Shown one piece after another: positions 2,773 to 41,175 of a stretch of DNA of 43,161 nt. The DNA is taken from UHGV virus genome UHGV-0191544, one strand, 5' to 3'. A model generated the notes under the pieces. That model did not search any database and had not been told where the DNA came from. It was given only the letters and a program-made list of their open reading frames with translations. The translations under genes and the position numbers were made by a program. The first letter of the stretch is position 1. Every line of letters begins with the position of its first letter. This DNA is from a virus.

Positions 2773-3674
2773 TTCACCTCCTGCGGCGGTTCCGGTAGCG
2801 GCATCCAGTGGGTTACACCGTCAATTGGCTCATCGTCGTCGTACTCCAATGCGGCTATATAGAACCCGTCACGACGAGAATAAGAAATCCCTGACATTAC
2901 AATGCCATCCGAAACAACAATAATGTCACCCGTTTCTTCCGGCATTCGCTCACTACAGCTTATCCAACCATCCGGAGTTACCGGAACTTGCGGAATGGCT
3001 GTCTGCTCTCGAACGTCATTAGGCGCTATAGGTTCTGCTGCCAACTGACTGGCATATTTGTTAATGGTAACGAAAAGCTCTTGCTCAGCCTCATCCAGAC
3101 AATCACCGATACCTCGCCTGTCACCGTCAAAATCATCGAAATCGGCACGAATCTTGGCAACCTTCAAGATTGCGGACAACACCTCACTAGGAATTACCGG
3201 ATAGTTGGTTGACGTTTCCGCGATTTCCCGAAAATTATTGGTTGACGAATTCTTGCTTTCCCGAAAGTTTCCGGACTGAAGCATGGCGGTGCGGCAGGCG
3301 TTCCATATTTCGGCAGCAATATCGCGCTCGCTATCGGTTAATTTGTACGTGGAAACATAGCCAGAGAGCATTTCTACGTTTTCCGGAGTTGCTTCTTCCG
3401 GCACTACCGGCGCTGGCGGGGAGATGCGTCCAAGCAACTTATTTACCTCTTTCGCCATCGCGTCATATTTATCTAAATGGCGATTAGCTTCTAAGCAGAC
3501 TCGGCGCATCTGATCTGAGTTAACTCGTTTAACTGGATCTGCTTCCAGCGATGCCAGCGCAATTCGTGCCAGTTCTTCCGCTTCTTCTGCTGGCAGTACA
3601 ACGTTGCTACCAGGTCCGTATGTTTCGCGCCACTGCTTGATTGTCAGCAGTTGCTCTTTGGTTATAGTGGTCAT
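2769..3674 (-). CDS. DUF551-type prophage protein, 301 aa
   Basis: C-terminal region shares motif (THWMPLP) with ORF 21679..21897; typical ea-region protein. Confidence 0.55.
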   Translation of the reverse strand: MTTITKEQLLTIKQWRETYGPGSNVVLPAEEAEELARIALASLEADPVKRVNSDQMRRVCLEANRHLDKYDAMAKEVNKLLGRISPPAPVVPEEATPENVEMLSGYVSTYKLTDSERDIAAEIWNACRTAMLQSGNFRESKNSSTNNFREIAETSTNYPVIPSEVLSAILKVAKIRADFDDFDGDRRGIGDCLDEAEQELFVTINKYASQLAAEPIAPNDVREQTAIPQVPVTPDGWISCSERMPEETGDIIVVSDGIVMSGISYSRRDGFYIAALEYDDDEPIDGVTHWMPLPEPPQEVK

Positions 3675-3675
3675 A

Positions 3676-4170
3676 TCACTCTCCTTTGATGCGAATGCCA
3701 GTGGTACTCATTCTCCTGATTTCCCAGAGCACACGAGGAATACCACCGTTTCCGACCGGATCGCGTTTACTCCGCAGGGCGACGCTTGATTCCGCCCAGC
3801 TTTTTCTTGGAGGAAGCTCTTTCACACGAACAAAACCAGCTGCGCGAAGAGATGCTCCTGATTCATCTGCCTGGGTGTACGTAATACAACGTTGATAACC
3901 CATAGCTTTTGCTGCCCGCCAGACAGCACCATAAAGCGCGCTGTTAGCGTTGCGTTCTCCTGTGGTACATGTGCGATTTACTTCAAGCGTTAATCCATCG
4001 TCCAAATGTCGTGCAACAGGTCGACCAGCTGTCGCCACACCTATCAATTCTCCGGCATTATTTCTCAGACCAATGCTGAATTTATGCCCCACTGGTGGTT
4101 TATTGTGTCGGTGGTGCTGTGCGATAAATTCCTGCGCCGCTTTCAGCGTTATAGGTGAAATGACCATCAC
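3676..4170 (-). CDS. Hypothetical protein, 164 aa
   Basis: ORF start overlaps upstream gene stop (ATGA); no family recognised. Confidence 0.55.
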   Translation of the reverse strand: MMVISPITLKAAQEFIAQHHRHNKPPVGHKFSIGLRNNAGELIGVATAGRPVARHLDDGLTLEVNRTCTTGERNANSALYGAVWRAAKAMGYQRCITYTQADESGASLRAAGFVRVKELPPRKSWAESSVALRSKRDPVGNGGIPRVLWEIRRMSTTGIRIKGE

Positions 4171-8325: not shown

Positions 8326-8964
8326 CTATGCGGCCTCGGAAGGAAGTCCAATCATCTTATTCAAATCCTCTACCCGTAAAGCAGGAAGTGCTGTACTTGC
8401 TTTATCTGCTTCTTTTGGTAGCAATTCTTTGCTTTCAGGCCAAACTTCAATGAGTCGCTTAACTGTTGTGACTGAGTTTAAAGCAGCCCATACATTTGAT
8501 TCGATATCCTTTTTCTTGGCTTCAAGTTTTTGTTGTAATGCGCAGATTTCATCAAACCTTTTTGTTATTTCGTGCTCTGCGTCAAACATGCATTTATCTT
8601 TTATCGGAGTAGGGAGAAATATATCTTCGCCGTTGCCGTCTTTCCCATATGAATGCCATCCAACCCTTCTGCCAGATACAGTCAGATAAATTGAAGTAGA
8701 ACGAAAATCGTATGAGTAAAATGAACATCCCATCTTTCCAAGTTCTTCACTTATAGCTACCAACTTGGATGATAACTGTTCCACTTCCTCAGTTTTCTTT
8801 TTACCGCCAAACGCAATAACTCTGGCGTCAAGTGCAAGCTGGTTCTTTAACTTTGTTACTTCTTCAAGCTCAGTGAAAACCCCAGACTTAATTAAAGCGT
8901 TACGAGCGATTTCCTCTTTCATTCTCGTAGTTAAGCGGATTGATGACATATTAATTCCTCTCAA
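8326..8964 (-). CDS. Hypothetical protein, 212 aa (possibly starting at internal Met, about 207 aa)
   Basis: ORF between N and first terminator; no family recognised. Confidence 0.5.
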   Translation of the reverse strand: MRGINMSSIRLTTRMKEEIARNALIKSGVFTELEEVTKLKNQLALDARVIAFGGKKKTEEVEQLSSKLVAISEELGKMGCSFYSYDFRSTSIYLTVSGRRVGWHSYGKDGNGEDIFLPTPIKDKCMFDAEHEITKRFDEICALQQKLEAKKKDIESNVWAALNSVTTVKRLIEVWPESKELLPKEADKASTALPALRVEDLNKMIGLPSEAA

Positions 8965-16579: not shown

Positions 16580-16755
16580 TGCTTAGCCCATCCCAATCCA
16601 TTCAATACCAGAAAGAAAGCGTCGAGCGGGCTTTAACGTGCGCTAACTGCGGTCAGAAGCTGCATGTGCTGGAAGTTCACGTGTGCTCCGATTGCTGCGC
16701 AGAACTGATGAGCGATCCGAATAGCTCAATGTACGAGGAAGAAGACGATGAATGA
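16579..16755 (+). CDS. ninF: NinF-like zinc-finger protein, 58 aa
   Basis: Hand-translated MLSPSQSIQYQKESVERALTCANCGQKLHVLEVHVC..., matching lambda NinF as recalled. Confidence 0.55.
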   Translation: MLSPSQSIQYQKESVERALTCANCGQKLHVLEVHVCSDCCAELMSDPNSSMYEEEDDE

Positions 16756-17470
16756 GTTAATAAATGGCAATGCCATCAAAATGACAAGCATTGAAATCGC
16801 TGAGTTGGTGAGTAAGCGTCATGACAATGTGAAACGTACCATCGAAACGCTGGCTAAAAATGGTGTTATCCGGCTTCCTCAGATTGAGGTTTCCGAAAGA
16901 ATCAATAACTTAGGGTTCAATGTTCAGTACGAGCATTACGTCTTCGAAGGCGAACAAGGTAAGCGAGACAGTATTGTCGTTGTTGCCCAGTTGTCGCCGG
17001 AATTCACCGCTCGTCTTGTTGACCGTTGGCGAGAGCTTGAAGAAACTGCGGTTAATATCCCCAAAACGCTACCAGAAGCGTTGCGCCTTGCTGCTGATCT
17101 TGCTGAGCAGAAAATGCAACTGGAAAACCAGCTCGCAATTGCCGCACCTAAAGTTGAGTTTGCCGATCGCGTTGGCGAGGCCAGCGGAATTTTGATTGGA
17201 AACTTTGCAAAGGTTGTCGGTATTGGCCCAAACAAACTGTTTGCATGGATGCGCGATCACAAAATCCTTATTGCTTCAGGTTCCCGGCGCAATGTGCCAA
17301 TGCAGGAATATATGGATCGCGGCTATTTCACAGTGAAAGAAACAGCGGTCAACACAAATCACGGAATACAGATATCGTTCACCACAAAAATCACCGGGCG
17401 TGGTCAACAGTGGCTGACCAGAAAGCTGCTCGATAACGGAATGCTGAAAGTAACAGGGGAGGCTGCTTAA
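16748..17470 (+). CDS. Phage antirepressor-like protein (N-terminal Rha/ORF6N-like, C-terminal KilA-C-like)
   Basis: Domain-like sequence pattern, size 240 aa; family call from memory only. Confidence 0.5.
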   Translation: MNELINGNAIKMTSIEIAELVSKRHDNVKRTIETLAKNGVIRLPQIEVSERINNLGFNVQYEHYVFEGEQGKRDSIVVVAQLSPEFTARLVDRWRELEETAVNIPKTLPEALRLAADLAEQKMQLENQLAIAAPKVEFADRVGEASGILIGNFAKVVGIGPNKLFAWMRDHKILIASGSRRNVPMQEYMDRGYFTVKETAVNTNHGIQISFTTKITGRGQQWLTRKLLDNGMLKVTGEAA

Positions 17471-20534: not shown

Positions 20535-20709
20535 TAGCGATAATTTTACTCATCATCCTTCACATCTGGCTCTGTAGACAGGGTGATGATCACTTCTGGA
20601 GTGAATCCAGATTAAACATCTCATTGCTGATGCTTGATATTGAGCATCTGGCGCGCGGTAAGGGGCTGCGTTGAGATAAGAGCCAGTCATTACAAACACC
20701 AGGATTTAG

Positions 20710-20732
20710 CCTCGCATTCGCGGGGCTTTTTT
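20710..20732 (+). terminator. Intrinsic terminator candidate between the lysis cassette and rha
   Basis: CCTCGC-ATTC-GCGGGG stem-loop followed by CTTTTTT; approx coordinates. Confidence 0.45.
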
Positions 20733-20876
20733 ATATCTGAATTTCACAGCGCATCTCACGCGCATATTAACGAGAGCCTTTCAGTAAGCGAGCCTGAGAA
20801 ATGCCGTTATAGGTGGCGACCTCTCTCGGGCGGCTTTTCTGTGAGACAGGCTCACTTTCTAAAAGGTAAAGACGCT

Positions 20877-21395
20877 ATGAATCATCAATTGGCTAATCTC
20901 GATTTCCGGGACATGGTGGTTGTTTCTGGTGATCGCGTGATCACAACCTCCCGCAAGGTAGCAGCTTACTTCGACAAGCAGCATCACCACATCATTCAGA
21001 AAATCGAAAAGCTAGACTGTTCGGATGAATTTCTAACCAGCAACTTTTCGCGGGTTACCTATGAACACAAGGGTAATCAGTATGTTGAATATGAAATTTC
21101 CAAAGACGGCGAGATGTACATCATCATGTCGTTTACCGGCAAAAAAGCTGCCGCCATCAAAGAGGCGTTTATCAAAGCATTTAATTGGATGCGTGACAGG
21201 CTGATGGAGATGGCTCACTCATACCAAAGAGAGCACAACGAGTTAATGCTGGAGTTCATGAAGGAAAAGGATGTTGCCAGTATGTCAGGACGCTTGCTGA
21301 ACCGCTGGGGCAGGATCAAAAAACCGCAACTCATAGCAAGAATCGAAAGGCTTGAGCAGCAGGCGCAAATATCGATCCCCGGACTGCCAAAGTGA
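20877..21395 (+). CDS. rha: Rha-family phage regulatory protein
   Basis: Internal ATG at 20877 (AAAAGG SD) of track ORF 20634..21395; Rha-like N-terminus. Confidence 0.65.
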   Translation: MNHQLANLDFRDMVVVSGDRVITTSRKVAAYFDKQHHHIIQKIEKLDCSDEFLTSNFSRVTYEHKGNQYVEYEISKDGEMYIIMSFTGKKAAAIKEAFIKAFNWMRDRLMEMAHSYQREHNELMLEFMKEKDVASMSGRLLNRWGRIKKPQLIARIERLEQQAQISIPGLPK

Positions 21396-27548: not shown

Positions 27549-28843
27549 TGGCATTAAATGAAGGTCAACTGGTCACGTATGCTCTGGATGAAATCATCGA
27601 AACCGTCCAGAACCTGACGCCAATGGCGTCAAAAGTGACAAAATACACCCCTCCGGCAGAATCCATGCAGCGTTCAAGCAACACCGTGTGGATGCCTGTT
27701 GAGCAGGAAGCGCCAACCCAGACTGGCTGGGATTTAACTGGCAACGCAACCGGGATTCTGGAACTCTCCGTGAAATGCAACATGGGCGATCCGGATAACG
27801 ATTTCTTCGAGCTTCGTGCAGATGACCTGCGTGATGAGCGTTCTTACCGTCGCCGCATCCAGGCATCCGCCAAAAAACTGGCGAATAACATTGAGTCAGC
27901 AATTGCCAAACAGGCAACCGAAATGGGCTCACTTGTTGTTCACGATACCCGCGCAATTGGTCCATCTACTGGCCTGTCTGGCTGGGATTTTGTGTCTGAT
28001 GCAGAGCGCCTGATGTTCTCCCGTGAGCTAAACCGCGATATGGGCATCAGTTACTTCCTGAACCCTGACGATTACCGCAAAGCAGGCCGCAACCTGGTAG
28101 ATGGTGACATCTTTGGGCGCGTTCCTGAAGACGCGTATCGCAACGGTACTATTCAGCGTCAGATTGCTGGCTTTGATGAAATTCTTCGCTCACCGAAACT
28201 TCCGGCAGTTACCAAGTCAACCGCTACTGGTGTAACTGTTTCTGGTGCGCAGAAGTTTAAGCCGCAGGCATACACCCTTGATACCGATGGTAACAAAGAG
28301 AACGTCGACAACCGTGTTGCAACGGTGACCGTATCCTCCACTACCGGATTTAAGCGCGGCGACAAAATCAGCTTCACTGGTGTGAAATTCCTGTCTCAGA
28401 TGGCGAAGAACGTGCTAACTGATGATGCGACTTTCTCAATCACCCGTGTGATCGATGGTACTCACATCGAAATCACGCCGAAACCGATTGCACTGGATGA
28501 CGCGTCACTGACAAAAGAAGAGAAGGCTTACGCTAACGTAAACACCTCTCTTGCTGATACCACTCCGGTAAACGTTCTGAACGTGGCAACAACCACCGCT
28601 AACGTGTTCTGGGCTGATGACTCAATCCGCCTGCTGTCTCAGCCGATCCCGGTAACCCATGAACTGTTTGCTGGTATGAAAACTTCTTCCTTCAGCATTC
28701 CAGGCATTGGTGTTAACGGCATCTTCGCAACGCAGGGTGATATCAACACTCTGTCTGGTAAGTGCCGTATTGCTGTGTGGTATTCAGCATGTGCTGTACG
28801 ACCAGAGGCAATTGGTGTTGGTCTGCCTAACCAGACTGCGTGA
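27548..28843 (+). CDS. Major capsid (coat) protein (P22 gp5)
   Basis: 431 aa; order and size. Confidence 0.9.
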
Positions 28844-33147: not shown

Positions 33148-34536
33148 ATGGCTACTTGGCAAGGATCAAATGGCGGATTGTTGGCTGGTATCGGCGGTGT
33201 CAACTCAAACGCTCCGAGCGTAAATGACATCGGCAATACGCTTCAGCTTATCAGGCAGAACAATGATATTGAGCGTTCAGGCGCTAACAATGTTGGGCTG
33301 ACTGCTTTGCAAGGCCTTTCAGGTATTGCGGGGGTGTTTCAGCAGGAAAAGCAGGCTCAGCGGCAGAAAGAATTTCAGCAGGCATACGCTAATGCTTATG
33401 CGTCTGGTGATCGCGGTGCTTTGCGTCAGTTGGCTACTCAATATCCAGACCAGATTGAATCCGTTCGTAAAGGCATGGGATTCATTGATGAAGACCAGCG
33501 CAATTCTATCGGCACCTTAGCGGCTGGCGCTCGTCTTGCGGCATCGTCTCCAGAAGCAATGCAATCATGGCTGCAAAACAACGCCAAGGAACTGACTCGC
33601 GTCGGTGTTGACCCTAACAACGTTGCTCAGATGTATCAGCAGAATCCTTCAGGATTTGGTGAGTTTGTTGATCACCTTGGGATGGCTGCGCTTGGTCCGA
33701 TTGATTACTTCAATGTTCAGGACAAGATGGCTGGTCGTGAGATTGATCGCGGAAAACTTGCAGAGACAATCCGCAGCAATCAGGCTGGCGAGGCGCTAAC
33801 AGCACGAGGCCAGAACATCACGATGCGCGGTCAGGACTTATCTGCTTCTACTGCGCGACGCGGGCAGGATTTGGCAATGCAGCGAGCGTCAACAAGAGGA
33901 ACCGCTGGGAATGATGAGCGTACAGTTCAGTTATCAGATGGCAGAACTGTAACGGTAGGCGGGAAACTTCACGGCGCTGGGGCTAATGCGTTCTACGAAG
34001 GCATCGACAACGAGGGGAATATGGTTCGCGTTCCTGCCAGTTCAATCGCAGCGCCTGCAACATCGTCTGCATCAGCACAAAACTATGCCATGAAGAAGGA
34101 TATCGACGCGATCGCAAATGCAGACGCTTCTGCTCTCGATTTCATGACAGGAATGACAGGCGGTGCAGGTAATCCAGCAATTGGTGCTGATGTTCGCAGC
34201 CGATTAACAGGAAAAGAGCAGCGCCAGTTATATAACTCAGCACAACGTATTCAGGGCAGAATGCAGAATCAGGGTGTGGCGGCAGCAAGGGACATGGGTG
34301 CCAGTGGTATTAACACCGTTGCAGAAGCGAAGATGTATTTTCAGGGGATGCCGCAGGTTGACTATTCAAGCCCGGAGGCTATGCAGCAGTCGATTCGTGA
34401 GATTCAGGAATACACCAACAATTACAACCAACAATATAACGTTAATGTTGGTAAATCTCAGCGGCAGCAATCTCAACCTGCACAGGTATCACAGCCAGCA
34501 GCCAGCAGTAACTTTTCTTCACTATGGGGTGATTAA
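33148..34536 (+). CDS. Ejection protein (P22 gp20-like)
   Basis: 462 aa; position. Confidence 0.7.
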
Positions 34537-36533
34537 TGGCTAAAGCATGGAAAGATGTTATCGCCTCTCCACAGTATCAGGCGTTAGCACCAGAACAAAA
34601 AGCGCAGGCTCAGGAGCAATACTTCAATGAAGTCGTGGCCCCGCAAGCCGGAGAAAATGCAGAGCAGGCTAAGCAAGCTTTCTATGCTGCCTATCCATTG
34701 CCATCTGTGCAGCAAGTGGAGACACAGCAACCAGTAGCACAGCAACAACCACAGCAAAGTGGATTTATGTCTGATCTTGGCGAAGCAGTAAAAGAGACTG
34801 GTCGCGGACTGGTGCAGGCTGGCGTGAACGTGGCAAACATACCTGCATCAGTTGCCGATGCTGTAACAAGCGCGGCGGCTTGGGCTGGCGGTAAACTCGG
34901 TATTGGCGATGGTACATATCAACCAGCACCACGAGTAACAACGCAGGGATTAGAGCAGGACTTTGGCCTTCAGCAAGGTGCGCTGACTCCACAAACGACA
35001 GAGGGAAGGGTATTTGCTGAAGCATTGCCTTACCTCACTCCTGTTGGCATTGAGAGAGCGGCGGTACAGGCACCAACACTTGCTGGTCGAATTGCTCAGG
35101 GGGCAACTCGCCTTCTCGCAGAAAACGCAGTTGGATCACTTGCTGCAAACAGTATGAAAGATGATGCGGAAGCACTCGCTACCGATTTAGGTGTTGGCGT
35201 TCTGGCAGGCGGCGCTATTAACGCTGCTGGACGTGGATTAGGTGCTGCTTATCGTGGCGTTCGCGGTGCTATTGCGCCAGAAGCGCAGCAAGCTATCAGA
35301 TTTGCAGAGCGTGAAGGAGTTCCTCTGCACACCACAGACCTGTTACAACCCACTTCCCGCGTCGGAAAAATGGCGCAGACTACAGCAGAAAATATCCCCC
35401 TGGCTGGCACAAGCGGAATGAGAGCAACACAACAGGAAGCGAGAAGCCAGTTGGTACAGAGATTTGCCGATAAATTCGGTGAGTATGATCCAGCGGTTGT
35501 TATTGACAGCCTTAAAGCGAAAACATCAGGAATTCGTCGTGCTGCCGGTAATCGACTGGAGCAGGTTCAGAATGCTATGGCTGGAGTAAACATTCAGCCT
35601 GTGCGAGCAATTCAGCAGATTGATACTGAGATATCTAACCTGCAGAAGCTTGGTAAGGTCGCTGATAACGAGACGATTTCAAAACTTCAATCCTATCGTG
35701 ATGAGCTTATTCGCAATGCTGGTCCTGATGGTCCGGTAAATCTGGATTTGAAGCAATTAAGCGATCTGCGTAGCCAGTTCAGAATGGACGTAAAGGGGGA
35801 ACGACCAGTGTTACCAAACCGTTCCGATGCTGCCATTCAGCGCGTTTACAAGGCGATGACAGACGATATCAATGGTGCCATTGGTCAGAATCTTGGCAAT
35901 GATACTCTCCGTAAATATCAGCAGGCCAATGCCGTCTACGCTGACGAAGCGGCGAAACTAAAGAATACCAGGCTGAAGAATGTTCTCATGAAAGGCGACC
36001 TGACACCGGAAGTTGTCAACAACATGCTATTCAGCAAGAACAAATCGGAAATTAAGACGCTGTATAACTCAGTTGGTCGTGTTGGCAGGGCGCAAATGCG
36101 CAATGGCATCATTGGAAAGGCGATGGAGAAATCTGGCGGATCCCCTGACCAGTTCCTTCGACAGCTTAACATCCTGCAAAACCAGACTGGCATCACATTT
36201 AAGGGGCAGGACGCTGCATATCTGAAAGGATTGAAAAACTACCTGCAATCCACGCAGCAGGCTGCAAAAGCGGCAGTAACAACACCAACAGGGCAGCAAA
36301 CCATCCCGTTCATTATCGGATATGGGACAGCAATGAACCCTGCGACAACTGGCGCAGCGGTAAGCTACGGACTTCTTACTCGCGCCTATGAGAGCGAGCC
36401 ATTCAGAAATGCAATGCTCCGAATGGCAAACACCCCACGCGGATCAACAGCCTTTGAGAAAGCAATGCAGCAGGCACAAAAGGCAATTAACGCTATGACG
36501 CAGGGGGCTAAGTCTGATGCGTTGTCAGAATAG
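34536..36533 (+). CDS. Ejection protein (P22 gp16-like)
   Basis: 665 aa; position. Confidence 0.7.
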   Translation: MAKAWKDVIASPQYQALAPEQKAQAQEQYFNEVVAPQAGENAEQAKQAFYAAYPLPSVQQVETQQPVAQQQPQQSGFMSDLGEAVKETGRGLVQAGVNVANIPASVADAVTSAAAWAGGKLGIGDGTYQPAPRVTTQGLEQDFGLQQGALTPQTTEGRVFAEALPYLTPVGIERAAVQAPTLAGRIAQGATRLLAENAVGSLAANSMKDDAEALATDLGVGVLAGGAINAAGRGLGAAYRGVRGAIAPEAQQAIRFAEREGVPLHTTDLLQPTSRVGKMAQTTAENIPLAGTSGMRATQQEARSQLVQRFADKFGEYDPAVVIDSLKAKTSGIRRAAGNRLEQVQNAMAGVNIQPVRAIQQIDTEISNLQKLGKVADNETISKLQSYRDELIRNAGPDGPVNLDLKQLSDLRSQFRMDVKGERPVLPNRSDAAIQRVYKAMTDDINGAIGQNLGNDTLRKYQQANAVYADEAAKLKNTRLKNVLMKGDLTPEVVNNMLFSKNKSEIKTLYNSVGRVGRAQMRNGIIGKAMEKSGGSPDQFLRQLNILQNQTGITFKGQDAAYLKGLKNYLQSTQQAAKAAVTTPTGQQTIPFIIGYGTAMNPATTGAAVSYGLLTRAYESEPFRNAMLRMANTPRGSTAFEKAMQQAQKAINAMTQGAKSDALSE

Positions 36534-36623
36534 CTTTTCAAACACCAGGAACGTGCAAAAACCAAATATGTAGAACGCGAGGTTTATCGTATCCCTCTGC
36601 ATAGGCGATACCTTTGCTGATTG

Positions 36624-37109
36624 TTATCTGATGTTACTGCTACTGTTGCATGTGACTGTATTTCCAAACCCTGAATTGCAGTTTGTGTAAGTGTCAACTC
36701 GTGTTGGATAGGGTTGAGTTATAACAGGCTGTCTCGCTTTTTGCTCGATCGCTTGCATTGTGTTTACAGCCTGATAATTCAATAAAGCCTGCTGGAATGC
36801 TTGGCTTTGTGCTATTTGTTGGGCTTGTTCTTGGCTTTGTAATTGAACATAAAGATTCTGAAGCTCAAGTCTTGCCTGTGCGTCACTTATCTTGCCTTCA
36901 TCGACACCTTGCCCGAGCATCTTTGCAGCAAGGACATACAGCTTAGGTGTTGGTGCTGATGCCATGCGTGAGTCGTTCTTCACACTGGCATCAAGGCAAT
37001 TAGCCATATCGCTAAGCTTTTGATAGCGTTGTTCGCAACTTGCTTGATAGTCACTTACTTTTGCGCATCCAACCAGCAGAAGCGGGATAATTAACAGTGA
37101 TTTTTTCAT
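36624..37109 (-). CDS. Lipoprotein with Gln-rich coiled-coil region, in the immI/sieA position
   Basis: Internal Met gives MKKSLLIIPLLLVGC signal peptide with lipobox; SD GGAGAG; opposite strand to late operon. Confidence 0.6.
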   Translation of the reverse strand: MKKSLLIIPLLLVGCAKVSDYQASCEQRYQKLSDMANCLDASVKNDSRMASAPTPKLYVLAAKMLGQGVDEGKISDAQARLELQNLYVQLQSQEQAQQIAQSQAFQQALLNYQAVNTMQAIEQKARQPVITQPYPTRVDTYTNCNSGFGNTVTCNSSSNIR

Positions 37110-37179
37110 ATGGTTAACTCTCCTTAGTTTTTCACAGGATAGCATGAAGGCAATGCCATTTTAGCCGGAAACTAGATTT

Positions 37180-37446
37180 CTATGTTTCCTTTTTATTATT
37201 GCTATACATGGTCTTAAGCGTTTCAAATACCATTTTCTTAACCATATCAGATTGTTGTTCTGCCATACGCTCTGCATCATCAATGTAAACGGATGCAGAG
37301 CTTTGTTTAGCCAACGATTCTTCAATCGCTGCAATTATCTCTGAGTTCAGCGATCTGTTATTCATCTTCGCACGCTGCTTAATTTTCGCGTGGAGTTCAT
37401 GCGGAAGTCTCAAGTGAAACTGCGCCTCATCGTATTTGCTGTACAT
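37180..37446 (-). CDS. mnt: Mnt-like ribbon-helix-helix repressor
   Basis: Matches P22 Mnt as recalled (NGRSMNSEL..., NDAERLADEQSELVKKMVFDTLK). Confidence 0.8.
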   Translation of the reverse strand: MYSKYDEAQFHLRLPHELHAKIKQRAKMNNRSLNSEIIAAIEESLAKQSSASVYIDDAERMAEQQSDMVKKMVFETLKTMYSNNKKET

Positions 37447-37567
37447 CCTTGATGCCTCACCAGTTGGGTGGAATTGCATCGTAACCTACTGGATAAATAC
37501 TCAATAGTACCATTTCGGTATGCAATCACATCATGGTTGCATCATATCATTCGTCTGGAGCAATGAA

Positions 37568-39640
37568 ATGTCAGATATCACCGCAAATGTTGTGGTAAGC
37601 ATGCCTTCGCAACTCTTCACTATGGCTCGTTCTTTTAAAGCGGTTGCCAATGGAAAAATTTATATCGGTAAAATTGACACTGACCCGGTAAATCCTGAAA
37701 ACCAGATTCAGGTTTATGTGGAGAACGAAGACGGTTCTCACGTTCCTGTTTCGCAACCAATAATCATTAACGCTGCTGGTTACCCTGTATATAACGGACA
37801 GATTGCCAAATTCGTAACTGTGAAAGCCCATTCTATGGCTGTTTATGATGCGTATGGTGCACGGCAGTTTTATTTTGGAAATATCATCCAATATGATGCA
37901 AAGCAAATCCTTGCTATTTTGTCTGGAGATATCGGTGCAACTTTTGTCGGGTGGAGAAAAAGAAAGTTAAACGACATACTTGATTCAATCTCTATAAGAT
38001 CTGATGACTTTCTTACTCTTCATGATTGGGCGGCTTATCCTGCTAAGCATAAAATTCTTGCTGGAGGAAATTACAATTTATCTTCAAGGCTGGAGATTGA
38101 TTGTGAGACATTATCTGTTGAAGGCGTAGCAAATATAAATGTAGGTGATTCATTTGTTGCTATGTATTTTGGTACAAATCAGCGAGATTTACTAACCACT
38201 ATTAGCTCTAATATTTCAAAAGGAATAACCAGTCTCACTGTTGATAATGTTCAGGAAGGAGATACTTTATGCTTTTATAATCCTTCAGATTTTTCATGGT
38301 CTGGACACAGGAATTATTATCGTGGCGGAGAGTTTGTTAAGGTGGTTAGGTATTCGAATGGGATTGCGTACTTCAATGGAGGGACAAAAGCCGCATACCC
38401 ATCCGGAACTCAAGTTTATAAGCTAAAAACAAAAAAAGTTTCTGTAAATGGGACTTTTGTATTTAATTTTCCTTCATACCACAAAAACGCCATGGCCATG
38501 CAATTCGAGCAGGTAGCTGATGGTAACTTTGACAATCTCGTCGTCACATCTCACACTGCGCCTTATGCCGTTCAGTTTAAACGTTGTTTCAATCTTGCTG
38601 GCAAGGGAATGCGTATCACACAGGAGTCTCCTTCTGTAAGTTTTGGCTTAGAATATGCCTGCTATATCTGCAATAGCCAGAATATTGATTTTGAAGGTAT
38701 ATTTTGTGCGGAGCGCCACTCAGTCACTGTGACTGGTAATGATGAAATTTGCGGTATTGTTAACCGATTTATTAGTGTTAACGCCAGCGGCGGCGCAATC
38801 ATGACTACTGGACAGGGTGGGGTGGCGGCAGCAGACTGGCACGGAAACACCGAAAAGTGTAGGTATGGTGGATATATTCAGGGGCTTGCTTGTGGAGGCT
38901 CTAAAAATAGCGCATATGGCGCTCATATCGACCACATACCGAACACTCCGGCATGGCCGAACATACTTGCTACGGAACTTAAATCAATAGAGTTTGATTT
39001 AAGCAATATCCATGTTACCGGGATAGGCGATCCGTCTTCAGTAAGCAGAGGCTGTATTGATTTTGGGGGTAACTCTACTGCATTCGGAACTAATACCGTT
39101 GATCCTGGAACGCTGAACCTTTCAGGGGCCGTTATTGATTCTCCTGCAAGCGTGTTGATTGAGATAAGAAACAGGGGGTCAGTAGCTGCGCACACCATAA
39201 ATCTTAATGGAGTTACCGCCAATGCAGAGAGCGGTAAGCACACAGTCAGGATTGCGCCGGTTGGGGAAGTTGGTATTTCTCCTTCAGATGTTTACATGGC
39301 AGGGTTTAAGATGCCTGCCGGTAGTATCTCACAGATAAACAACATGTCATCAGTAAACGTACATGGAGTTGATTTAACAGGAACCGCAACGGCTACTATA
39401 CCTGCAGGTAGCTTTTCTGTTGAGGTAACTATACCTTTCCCATCGAGTATATTAGGGGTGCCAAAGCATATCGGCTTCGGGTTAACAGGATTAATACCCC
39501 CAACGCAGAGACGGGTTGTTCTCTCAAAAAGAAATGCAACAGCAAATCAATTCCGTGTAATTGTCGCGTTGGCAACTACTGATGCAGAGCTAACGTCTGA
39601 TCTGAGTGTGGACTTCACATATCATGTATCATGGCGCTAA
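37568..39640 (+). CDS. Tailspike (P22 gp9-like head-binding domain, divergent receptor-binding domain)
   Basis: N-terminal about 115 aa matches P22 gp9 ([34 protein letters not shown]...); rest unrelated. Confidence 0.9.
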
Positions 39641-39709: not shown

Positions 39710-40864
39710 TCATATCTTTTCATCAAGCCAATCCGCCCACCACTGCATCATTTCTCTGCGCTTATCGAGATACTGAGCATGGTTGTAAATTCCACGCACA
39801 GAACCGCCGTTGGCATGTGCTAGTTGCACTTCAATAGCATCGGCGGGCCATTCGTGCTCGTTCATAATCGTGCTGAATTCATGCCTGAATCCGTGACCGC
39901 TTTCCAGACCCTCATAGCCAATTTGTTTGATCACAAGCAATACCGCGTTCTCGCAGATTGGCTTCTTCTTATCGTTGCGTCCGGCAAAAACAAACTCTGA
40001 TACTGGTTTAGTGATTGAGCTTAGCGTAGTGAGAAGTTCAACCACCTGGTCTGACATCGGGACCACATGAATTTTGCGTCCCTTCATCACACTGGCGTCG
40101 ATGGTGATAATCCTGTTTTCAAAATCGACGTTCTTCCATTGCATGGAGCGAAGCTCTTTCGTTCTGAGGGCTGTGTAGCGTAAAACTTTGGTCGCAATGA
40201 GCGATACGATGCTTCCTGAAAATGTTGCCAGTGCTTTGTTAAATGCCGGGATCTGGTCTGCAGGAAGAAACGGGAAGTTCTTCTTGCGGTATCCCTTCAT
40301 GGCGTCAGCAAGGTCAGGTGCCGGGTTATATTTAGCCCTGCCGGTGACAATAGCGTAACGGAAAACCTCGCCGCATCTTCTGCGTGCTTTGTTGGCTCGC
40401 TCCATTGCACCGCGATCTTCGAATCTGCGGATTACTTCCAGCAGTTGCATCGGCTCAATATCCTGAATCTCAAGACCGCCGATGATGGGTAAAATGTCGT
40501 CATCAAACATTTTGGCAAGTTCAGTCGCATATCCTACTGACCAGACTTGCTTCTTGTGCTCGTACCATTCCTTGTAAATGGCGCTAAAGGAATTGTTGTT
40601 AGACGAAGCCTTTTTCGCTTTTACCGGATCGATGCCAACCGAGATGTCTTTCCTCGCGGTCCATGCTTTATCTCTTGCCTCCTGCAAAGTCATTAGCGGA
40701 TATTTTCCTACGGTCAGGATTTTCTCCTTACCGTCAATCTTGTAGCGAAGCTGCCATACCTTTTTCCCGGATACAGGGACATAAAGGTACAGGCCATTAC
40801 CATCGAGAAGGCGGTATGGTTTTTCTTTCGGCTTTGCTGCTTCAATCTGCTTAACGGTGAGCAT
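39710..40864 (-). CDS. intS: Tyrosine integrase, P4/IntS type
   Basis: N-terminus LTVKQIEAAKPKEKPYRLLDGNGLYLYV typical of P4-family integrases; adjacent to tRNA; likely ATG at 40864. Confidence 0.9.
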   Translation of the reverse strand: MLTVKQIEAAKPKEKPYRLLDGNGLYLYVPVSGKKVWQLRYKIDGKEKILTVGKYPLMTLQEARDKAWTARKDISVGIDPVKAKKASSNNNSFSAIYKEWYEHKKQVWSVGYATELAKMFDDDILPIIGGLEIQDIEPMQLLEVIRRFEDRGAMERANKARRRCGEVFRYAIVTGRAKYNPAPDLADAMKGYRKKNFPFLPADQIPAFNKALATFSGSIVSLIATKVLRYTALRTKELRSMQWKNVDFENRIITIDASVMKGRKIHVVPMSDQVVELLTTLSSITKPVSEFVFAGRNDKKKPICENAVLLVIKQIGYEGLESGHGFRHEFSTIMNEHEWPADAIEVQLAHANGGSVRGIYNHAQYLDKRREMMQWWADWLDEKI

Positions 40865-40909
40865 GGGTAAAAATCCGGTGGGTAAAATTATTTTATCCAC
40901 TTTTTACCC
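40865..40909. promoter_or_regulatory. GGGTAAAA motif cluster (two direct, one inverted) at the integrase start; candidate arm sites
   Basis: Same 8-mer as at 868..887; approx coordinates. Confidence 0.35.
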
Positions 40910-41024: not shown

Positions 41025-41039
41025 ATGGTGTCCCCTGCA
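41025..41039. repeat. att core, right copy, forming the 3' end of the tRNA
   Basis: Exact 15-bp match to 794..808. Confidence 0.65.
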
Positions 41040-41099
41040 GGAATCGAACCTGCAATTAGCCCTTAGGAGGGGCTCGTTATATCCATTTAACTAAGAGGA
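41025..41099 (-). tRNA. argW: tRNA-Arg (anticodon CCU)
   Basis: Reverse complement reads GTCCTCTTAGTTAAATGGATATAACGAGCCCCTCCTAAGGGCTAATTGCAGGTTCGATTCCTGCAGGGGACACCA. Confidence 0.9.
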
Positions 41100-41175
41100 C
41101 AATGCGGCATGAGTATACCCGCTAATGGACTGCGGGGTAAGTACGCTGCCGCTCGATTGCTTAAACCCTCGCCAT

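Follow-up and report, generated by a model that had tools for sequence, protein, structure and literature searches.

In phage P22, the interval between gene 16 and the tailspike gene (gene 9) holds sieA, orf59a and the second immunity region (immI) genes mnt, arc, sar and ant, and P22 Mnt represses the Pant-ant of superinfecting P22. The stretch from gene 16 to the tailspike gene was named the "ant moron", and its high rate of change stressed, in a comparative study in which ST64T, ST104 and Para1 had only mnt and one gene of unknown function there and in which the corresponding region of an Escherichia coli B7A prophage was drawn (Villafane et al. 2008, Figure 3). An mnt-only moron has also been described for phage L, together with the question of whether the mnt-like gene of P22-like phages that lack ant is a remnant or is otherwise functional (phage L genome paper 2020). 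Here we analyze this interval in the virus genome UHGV-0191544 (43,161 nucleotides, the whole of which we call the window), where a gene for a predicted lipoprotein and an mnt gene without arc or ant, hereafter an orphan mnt, precede the tailspike gene.

The gene-16 homologue and the tailspike gene of the window are separated by exactly two credible minus-strand genes, those for the lipoprotein and for Mnt (Table 1), and nothing resembling arc or ant was found between these two landmarks; of the complete immI set of mnt, arc, sar and ant, mnt alone was found. Open reading frames and profile searches thus bear out what a first-pass annotation, made from the letters of the sequence, had described as a lipoprotein and an mnt gene without arc or ant, the latter adjoining the tailspike gene, and the 121 bp that it gave for the mnt-tailspike spacer (37447–37567) agrees with our measurement. 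The same annotation described a remodeled immI; this is no peculiarity of the window but a frequent and published module. The interval represents a reduced variant of the P22 second-immunity region that is common and has been described before. It is an ordinary feature, with the composition of an mnt-only ant moron: a variable, non-morphogenetic insert, placed between gene 16 and the tailspike gene, of mnt and another gene whose function is unknown. The 1.17-kb segment spanning the lipoprotein gene, mnt, the spacer and the tailspike start is present in 106 of 5,426 complete E. coli genomes (96–99% identity, coverage of at least 80%), and mnt with the spacer alone in 253 of them. The same module occurs in the E. 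coli B7A prophage at 97.7% identity, the spacers of phages Sf101 and IME10 are identical to that of the window, and in Gally, VSe13, ST160 and phage L mnt is again immediately upstream of the tailspike gene and divergent from it, with neither arc nor ant.

The product of the orphan gene has both domains of a Mnt repressor. Its N-terminal ribbon-helix-helix part matches Pfam PF03869 Arc (E = 8.4e-15, residues 7–49) and PDB 1MNT (E = 5.7e-19), its C-terminal tetramerization coiled coil matches PF11423 Repressor_Mnt (E = 4e-12, residues 57–81) and PDB 1QEY (E = 1.2e-6), and it shares 47% identity with P22 Mnt across 76 residues. It departs from a repressor of the Pant of an arc-ant operon in that no arc or ant follows its operator and Pant is degenerate.

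As far as the end of the Mnt operator, the window is built like the mnt-arc intergenic region of P22. When the spacer is aligned with its annotated counterpart (P22, ...TATATT CTCAAT AGGTCCACGGTGGACCT; window, ...TAAATA CTCAAT AGTACCATTTCGGTATG), a putative symmetric 17-bp operator comes to stand beside its own divergent promoter, in the register of the P22 operator. This Pmnt-like promoter was identified through the alignment with the annotated P22 Pmnt, a scan for consensus promoters having made no call; the homologous promoters read TTGTTG-17-TACGAT in the type with a 135-bp spacer, TTGTTG-17-TATCAT in Serratia and TTGAGA-17-TATCAT in P22. Mnt proteins and their operators fall into three specificity classes, of which that of the window is class 3 (Table 1). 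CC-N5-GG is found in the same register in all three, and the palindrome around it co-varies with the residues of the DNA-contact beta-strand of Mnt from class to class. The HFNFRM-class operators read in P22, epsilon34 and a Pluralibacter prophage are followed by arc and ant in all three cases. Within class 3, AGTACCA-N3-TGGTACT is perfect in three Serratia prophages with a different central triplet in each, and the positions invariant among the spacers of E. coli, Serratia and Buttiauxella comprise the ribosome-binding site (RBS) complement, part of the −10, the −35, the left operator arm and the GG-A of the right arm, the most conserved block being the left operator half with the −35. The mnt promoter, RBS and operator are conserved well beyond the level of synonymous sites. 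The first-pass annotation had concluded that Mnt has lost its usual target; this is right as far as ant is concerned, which is gone, but not for Pmnt and the 17-bp operator, which have been kept, the latter changing in step with the contact residues of Mnt.

The rightward promoter has fared differently. P22 Pant has the consensus form TTGACA-17-TATATT, and what stands in its place in the window falls under the scan threshold, so that no plus-strand promoter was called in the window spacer; in the types of phage L, ST160, Gally and Serratia and in the 135-bp E. coli type, the −10 ends in C rather than T. As read from these alignments, Pant is degenerate in every orphan module, whereas the parts for leftward expression and Mnt binding have been kept. 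We also observed that positions 37474–37479 read TTGCAT in the window and TGGCAT in most relatives, the window variant occurring in only 2 of 80 IMG/VR loci; the G-to-T change falls at the transcription start region of Pmnt and in the vestigial −35 of Pant.

Codon comparisons speak against decay of the gene. Between the window and VSe13, the N-terminal domain of mnt has diverged by about 2.2 synonymous substitutions per site (dS) and 0.086 non-synonymous substitutions per site (dN), a ratio of 0.04; over the full length, E. coli EN-1077 (locus L008) and VSe13 give a dN/dS of 0.02 at a dS of about 1.0, and Gally and ST160 a dN/dS of 0.10. Overall, orphan mnt alleles have dN/dS values of 0.02–0.10 with synonymous sites near saturation, and the reading frames are intact, with both domains, in E. 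coli, Serratia, Yersinia and Buttiauxella. These values indicate that the orphan mnt is under strong purifying selection and is not decaying.

The gene also keeps constant company. At 79 of 80 IMG/VR loci with a class-3 mnt, the tailspike gene is divergently upstream, the one exception ending at a contig edge, and arc or ant is found on that side at none of the 80. Among the operator-pattern matches listed, which are to be taken as lower bounds, 73 contexts with a class-3 mnt to the left of the operator have the tailspike gene to its right and three further ones have no detectable tailspike N-terminus there; arc or ant to the right of the operator is seen in none of these 76 listed contexts. 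Homology between alleles always stops just past the operator, at about 37525. In prophages of the EN-1077 type, the order is a gene for a SieA-like membrane protein, a truncated mnt-like gene of another specificity, arc, ant, a further gene and then a class-3 mnt, followed by its operator and by the tailspike gene; the operator of this second immI is the perfect palindrome ATGACATCATGGTGATGTCAT (in the region 1540–1650 of L008), and its last gene encodes a 242-aa product. Because a class-3 mnt here stands beside a complete immI of different specificity, the cassette of mnt, operator and tailspike leader behaves as an independent unit, not just as the residue of a local deletion. With or without a functional immI next to it, the class-3 cassette travels as a module joined to the tailspike leader.

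The reading that we favor, and lean towards modestly, is that Mnt in the lysogen sets the level of the leftward transcript from its own operator and blocks rightward initiation into the tailspike gene. In the lysogen, Pmnt would fire leftward from about 37471 and make Mnt, and its transcript, in some lineages at least, would also cover the lipoprotein gene. A Mnt tetramer would occupy 37506–37522, directly upstream of the Pmnt −35 and covering the start of the vestigial Pant, from where it would tune its own transcript and keep initiation by the Pant remnant into the tailspike gene shut. The lipoprotein, predicted to be a periplasmic protein anchored in the outer membrane, would in E. coli probably be expressed from an extended −10 promoter of its own, and in Serratia and Yersinia in an operon with mnt. 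A bolder form of the proposal, which we put forward as tentative, is that orphan Mnt-operator cassettes are no relics of immI but a separately selected regulatory unit of P22-like prophages, with at least three co-evolving specificities that have no antirepressor, which would gate the tailspike leader and/or drive an envelope operon whose lipoprotein would be a new outer-membrane exclusion factor against P22-like DNA delivery.

Several observations weigh against this account. In E. coli the operator palindrome is imperfect (right arm cGGTAtg), the right arm is mutated from CGGTA to CTGTA at six IMG/VR loci (L018, L058, L069 and their relatives), and it has decayed in Yersinia (L216) and Symbiopectobacterium (L229); in lineages with right-arm mutations, either one half-site suffices or the constraint is relaxed. 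The operator is centered near −43 of Pmnt, a position from which repression is not plainly predicted, and the Pmnt of the window has a non-optimal spacer of 15 bp and received no call in the promoter scan. The lipoprotein matches no exclusion protein by homology or fold, is absent from at least 31 of the 80 class-3 loci, and in VSe13 and Gally is encoded by a gene separated from mnt. From this absence and separation it follows that Mnt is not kept simply to drive the lipoprotein, whose gene is an optional moron passenger. Buttiauxella (L232) is also among the lineages in which the right operator arm is mutated or largely decayed, with the left arm and mnt intact.

Other explanations account for parts of the same evidence. 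The orphan Mnt could be mainly a gatekeeper of transcription into the tailspike gene, repressing a residual rightward promoter or acting as a roadblock or modulator for transcripts that arrive from the left. The invariable joining of the cassette to the tailspike leader and the break in homology just past the operator are what this would predict; the arc-ant operon of other specificity in EN-1077-type prophages reads toward mnt, operator and tailspike gene, the sub-threshold ATGGCA-17-AATACT would start at the operator, and Mnt and Arc have been suggested to affect late transcription into the tailspike gene (Villafane 2008). We nevertheless hold it unlikely, as the rightward promoter is degenerate in all orphan modules, with the −10 lacking its final T in those named above, the scan called no rightward promoter in the spacer, and the roadblock form presupposes that a bound Mnt tetramer can stop antiterminated late-operon transcription. 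If instead Mnt had been kept for immunity in trans, repressing the Pant-ant of superinfecting relatives of the same class and so shielding the main repressor from a foreign antirepressor, as P22 Mnt does toward superinfecting P22, purifying selection on a mnt gene without an ant gene in cis would be understandable. Such relatives did not come to light: a class-3 operator beside arc or ant was found neither at the 80 IMG/VR Mnt loci nor in the 76 listed operator-anchored contexts nor at the loci from genome collections, and a class-3 operator ahead of arc or ant in other phages was found neither among the listed IMG/VR matches nor in species-representative genomes. Since it also leaves the retention of the operator in cis and its co-variation unexplained, we consider immunity in trans improbable.

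The leftward Pmnt transcript could itself be the functional product, a long antisense RNA against incoming late transcripts of the kind proposed for STnc6030 of BTP1. An abundant leftward BTP1 transcript from the same junction excludes BTP1 (PMC7067206), and a terminator was not detected from the lipoprotein stop to gene 16, yet both open reading frames are conserved at the protein level across genera despite divergent DNA, and the mutations by which BTP1 escapes alter the gene-16 protein, which fits exclusion at the protein level equally well; an antisense role for the RNA seems to us very improbable. That mnt is a functionless leftover of a degraded immI is the possibility raised in the phage L genome paper, and the loss of arc and ant and the right-arm mutations of some operators fit it. 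The low dN/dS at high synonymous divergence, the intact two-domain frames across four genera and the conservation of promoter, RBS and operator well above synonymous sites all contradict it, and we rate it the least probable of the explanations considered.

Sequences resembling the operator elsewhere in the window do not extend this picture. No credible further class-3 operator was found in the window, where at least 10 of 14 consensus positions are matched at 9 sites against 15.6 expected by chance. Exact TACC-N5-GGTA has two matches in the window against 0.22 expected; the second, at 28558–28570 (TACCACTCCGGTA), lies inside the coat protein gene and is unlikely to have a role as an operator. 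The CACC-N5-GGTG of the mnt leader (37458–37470), though it has the format of TACC-N5-GGTA, was likewise rejected as a second Mnt operator, an equivalent being present in P22-class and L-class leaders and not tracking the operator class. It is more likely a leader hairpin, comparable to those that overlap the Shine-Dalgarno (SD) sequence in the P22-class and L-class leaders, the folding energy being not significant. The window also has two Rha/KilAC antirepressor-like genes, at 16748–17470 and 20634–21395, in the early-right and post-lysis regions; they are not homologues of P22 ant, one having Phage_pRha and ANT/KilAC domains and the other Phage_pRha and ORF11CD3, and no class-3 operator was found near either. 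In IMG/VR, GTACCGTTTCGGTATG, identical to the operator variant of one E. coli locus (L006), occurs twice, 515 bp apart, in contig L099 (7579–7594 and 8094–8109) and also in L103, L122, L130, L151 and L162. There it sits in a repeated intergenic element upstream of small genes of unrelated phage contigs, probably by coincidence.

The lipoprotein belongs to a PHROG family to which no function is assigned (phrog_6067). Its N-terminus, MKKSLLIIPLLLVGC/AKV, is a signal peptide with a lipobox that conforms to the bacterial pattern ([LVI][ASTVI][GAS]C, no Asp at +2), and under the Lol sorting rule its Ala at +2 predicts sorting to the outer membrane; beyond the signal peptide no transmembrane helix is evident. 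Across 30 homologues Cys15 is invariant and Gly14 and Ala16 nearly so, and the invariant cysteines of the family are that of the lipobox, two in the N-terminal helical domain (Cys25/Cys38) and one near the C-terminus. Glutamine makes up 21 residues in total and 16 of the 55 residues from 76 to 130. The AlphaFold model is of moderate quality (mean predicted local distance difference test score 64, about 80–88 over residues 20–100) and shows a small helical domain together with a long Gln-rich helix and, at low confidence, a C-terminal beta-hairpin that contains a cysteine. Reading frame, lipobox and glutamine count confirm the predicted Gln-rich lipoprotein of 161 aa of the first-pass annotation.

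Searches gave this protein no known function. With the moderate-quality model, Foldseek found no match at E ≤ 0.001 in PDB or BFVD; Pfam and PADLOC returned no family and NCBIfam a weak GspK match well under its cutoff, and by PADLOC, Pfam and Foldseek the protein belongs to no known anti-phage defense or exclusion family. Compared with the P22 type of SieA, it gives no BLASTP alignment, and it lacks the integral inner-membrane character of SieA proteins. A match to a known virion protein, which the first-pass annotation had named as telling against an exclusion role, did not emerge: the sole virion-type match is to a PHROG minor-tail family (E = 0.009) across the Gln-rich helix, and judged from these searches the protein is not a known virion protein.

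Its genomic setting is more informative. The 94 homologues all come from Enterobacterales (E. coli, Citrobacter, Serratia, Cronobacter, Klebsiella aerogenes, Yersinia, Pectobacterium, Morganella, Providencia and Tatumella), and the family is confined to the gene-16-to-tailspike locus in prophages of several genera. In Yersinia and Serratia prophages the lipoprotein gene follows mnt after 15–17 bp in the same orientation, a spacing that indicates an operon. The corresponding gap of the window measures 70 bp, neither mnt nor the lipoprotein gene is followed by a convincing intrinsic terminator, and in Morganella the gene is at a locus without mnt. The extended −10-like motif TGCTATCCT may be the lipoprotein's own promoter, as it is conserved in VSe13 even though a convergent gene there separates the lipoprotein gene from mnt.

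The first-pass annotation placed the lipoprotein where P22-like phages carry exclusion functions, and P22 indeed has sieA at this locus; a role in exclusion is read from that position, with no fold or profile match to add to it. SieA acts on the gene-16 and gene-20 ejection proteins (PMC10883804), and in the BTP1 prophage a leftward, lysogen-expressed STnc6030 transcript from the same junction excludes BTP1, which escapes through non-synonymous mutations in the C-terminus of its gene-16 homologue (PMC7067206). Escape mutations from BTP1 exclusion (PMC7067206) and from SieA (PMC10883804) map to the same region of the gene-16 protein. Because they share this region, the BTP1 locus may act at the level of protein or DNA delivery. 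By analogy of position, the lipoprotein most plausibly acts in lysogenic conversion or in the exclusion of superinfecting P22-like phages.

The leader of the tailspike gene holds an element of another kind. The first-pass annotation reported two direct repeats in the spacer, 14-mers at 37521–37534 and 37537–37550, which share 10 of 14 positions. This is at chance level, since about half of composition-preserving shuffles of the spacer yield a pair of 14-mers at least as similar; the best real pair, at 11 of 14, was equaled in 91 of 1,000 shuffles. As protein-binding repeats the two 14-mers were therefore rejected, and the repeat tool, which gave no report of them, reported an inverted repeat instead (37520–37542; Table 1), which takes in most of the first 14-mer and the start of the second and would account for the pattern better than direct repeats. 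The spacer element that matters, the imperfect palindrome at 37506–37522, escaped the first-pass annotation. On the late plus-strand transcript of the tailspike gene, the inverted repeat may fold into an RNA hairpin. Homology with Sf6, HK620 and CUS-3 resumes at about 37552, and nearly all P22-like loci have a hairpin-capable inverted repeat 14–20 nt upstream of the tailspike SD, with sequences unrelated between families: CCGTAGC-CAT-GCTGCGG in P22 (the "boundary sequence"), CCGGACA...TGTCCGG in Sf6, CCGCAAG...CTTGTGG in Serratia and CACCA...TGGTG in Morganella. Within families, most changes in the hairpin allow G-U pairing on the plus strand and a few are compensatory; the covariation score was matched by 3 of 500 and 27 of 500 shuffles, a modest support. 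The leader hairpin may thus be an RNA element of the tailspike leader. A further resemblance, that of ATCACATCATGGT (37524–37536) to half of the EN-1077 palindrome (12 of 13 identical, post hoc p of about 0.016), was set aside as too weak.

Table 1 Features of the gene-16-to-tailspike interval and its surroundings, with the Mnt-operator classes and leader repeats of other loci
Feature	Position or occurrence	Strand	Details
Gene-16 homologue	34536–36533		Left of the interval; phrog_770, DNA transfer protein
Spacer, gene-16 homologue stop to lipoprotein gene stop	36534–36623		
Predicted outer-membrane lipoprotein	36624–37109	minus	161 aa, lipobox LVGC, Cys15, Ala at +2, phrog_6067
Extended −10-like motif TGCTATCCT	37136–37144	minus	About 25 nt upstream of lipoprotein start; kept in VSe13
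Orphan mnt	37180–37446	minus	88-aa ribbon-helix-helix repressor; recognition strand EAQFHLRLP, class 3
mnt leader	37455–37470	minus	SD GGTGAGG (37455–37461), partly within small hairpin CACC-N5-GGTG (37458–37470)
Pant vestige	37473–37501	+	ATTGCA-17-AATACT, 7/12 matches (8/12 in common variant ATGGCA), under scan threshold
Pmnt-like sigma-70 promoter	37478–37504	minus	−10 TACGAT (37483 to 37478), −35 TTGAGT (37504 to 37499), 15-bp spacer
Predicted class-3 Mnt operator AGTACCATTTCGGTATG	37506–37522		17-bp imperfect palindrome, TACC-N5-GGTA; 1 bp upstream of Pmnt −35; register of annotated P22 Omnt
Inverted repeat ATGCAATCA-CATCA-TGGTTGCAT	37520–37528 / 37534–37542	+	Ends 16 nt before tailspike GGAG
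Tailspike RBS and start	37554–37570	+	GGAG within 37554–37561; start codon 37568–37570
Tailspike gene	37568–39640	+	Pfam Head_binding, 4.6e-63
Integrase gene	39710–40900	minus	
tRNA-Arg(CCT)	41026–41100		Right of integrase gene, then host genes
Mnt class HFNFRM	P22, epsilon34, CUS-3 mntB, Pluralibacter prophage		Operator AGGTCCACGGTGGACCT
Mnt class QFNLRL	Phage L, ST160, Gally		Operator AAGACCAC(C/A)GTGGTCT, i.e., AAGACCAC-N-GTGGTCTT; orphan
Mnt class QFHLRL (class 3)	Window, Sf101, VSe13, Serratia, Buttiauxella		Operator AGTACCA-N3-TGGTACT; orphan
Leader inverted repeats, other loci	L003 (P22) ~3663–3679; L214 (Sf6) ~371–394; also L221–L223, L219		

The window as a whole is a P22-like (Lederbergvirus-type) prophage in an E. 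coli chromosomal segment, at tRNA-Arg(CCT), past which lie host genes for a protein of the formate/nitrite-transporter family and for MlaA. That the prophage abuts this tRNA gene beside its integrase gene is consistent with integration at argW. To the left of the moron, the spacer after the gene-16 homologue is common to Sf6, which has no moron, up to about 36590. The early-left region of the prophage has a gene for an Nmad5 (nucleotide-modification-associated domain 5) protein at 8326–8964 on the minus strand.

Regarding the question raised for phage L, the comparative evidence (purifying selection, a promoter and an operator that have been retained, and an operator that co-varies with the recognition residues) argues for a function of the orphan mnt, and a concrete 17-bp candidate Mnt site is now defined. 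The lipoprotein family, widespread in prophages of E. coli, Serratia, Yersinia, K. aerogenes, Morganella and others and always at the locus of P22 and BTP1 exclusion, may by this analogy reasonably be regarded as a candidate new factor of exclusion or conversion. Neither finding changes the general picture of P22-like genome organization.

Set against known systems, the lipoprotein resembles P22 SieA in its place and strand beside the ejection-protein genes and in being presumably expressed from the prophage; SieA, however, is an integral inner-membrane protein, whereas the window protein is a predicted outer-membrane lipoprotein with no sequence similarity to it. T5 Llp, phi80/N15 Cor, lambda Bor and TP-J34 Ltp are also small envelope lipoproteins of phages or prophages, a likeness by category only, for no Pfam, PHROG function, PADLOC or fold match connects the window protein with such exclusion and conversion lipoproteins. 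With the P22 immI, the locus shares its place between gene 16 and gene 9 and a homologous two-domain mnt, but it lacks arc, sar and ant, its Pant is degenerate, its recognition residues are QFHLRL rather than HFNFRM, and its operator arms are GTACC rather than GGTCCAC. The mnt-only ant morons of phage L, ST64T, ST104 and B7A likewise consist, between gene 16 and the tailspike gene, of mnt and one functionally unassigned gene, with mnt divergent from the latter across a spacer of about 121–135 bp. Unlike the window, phage L and ST64T have the QFNLRL class of Mnt with AAGACCAC-GTGGTCTT as operator and orf62 in place of the lipoprotein gene, and where the P22 type has its "boundary sequence", the window type has a distinct 27-bp segment (37525–37551).

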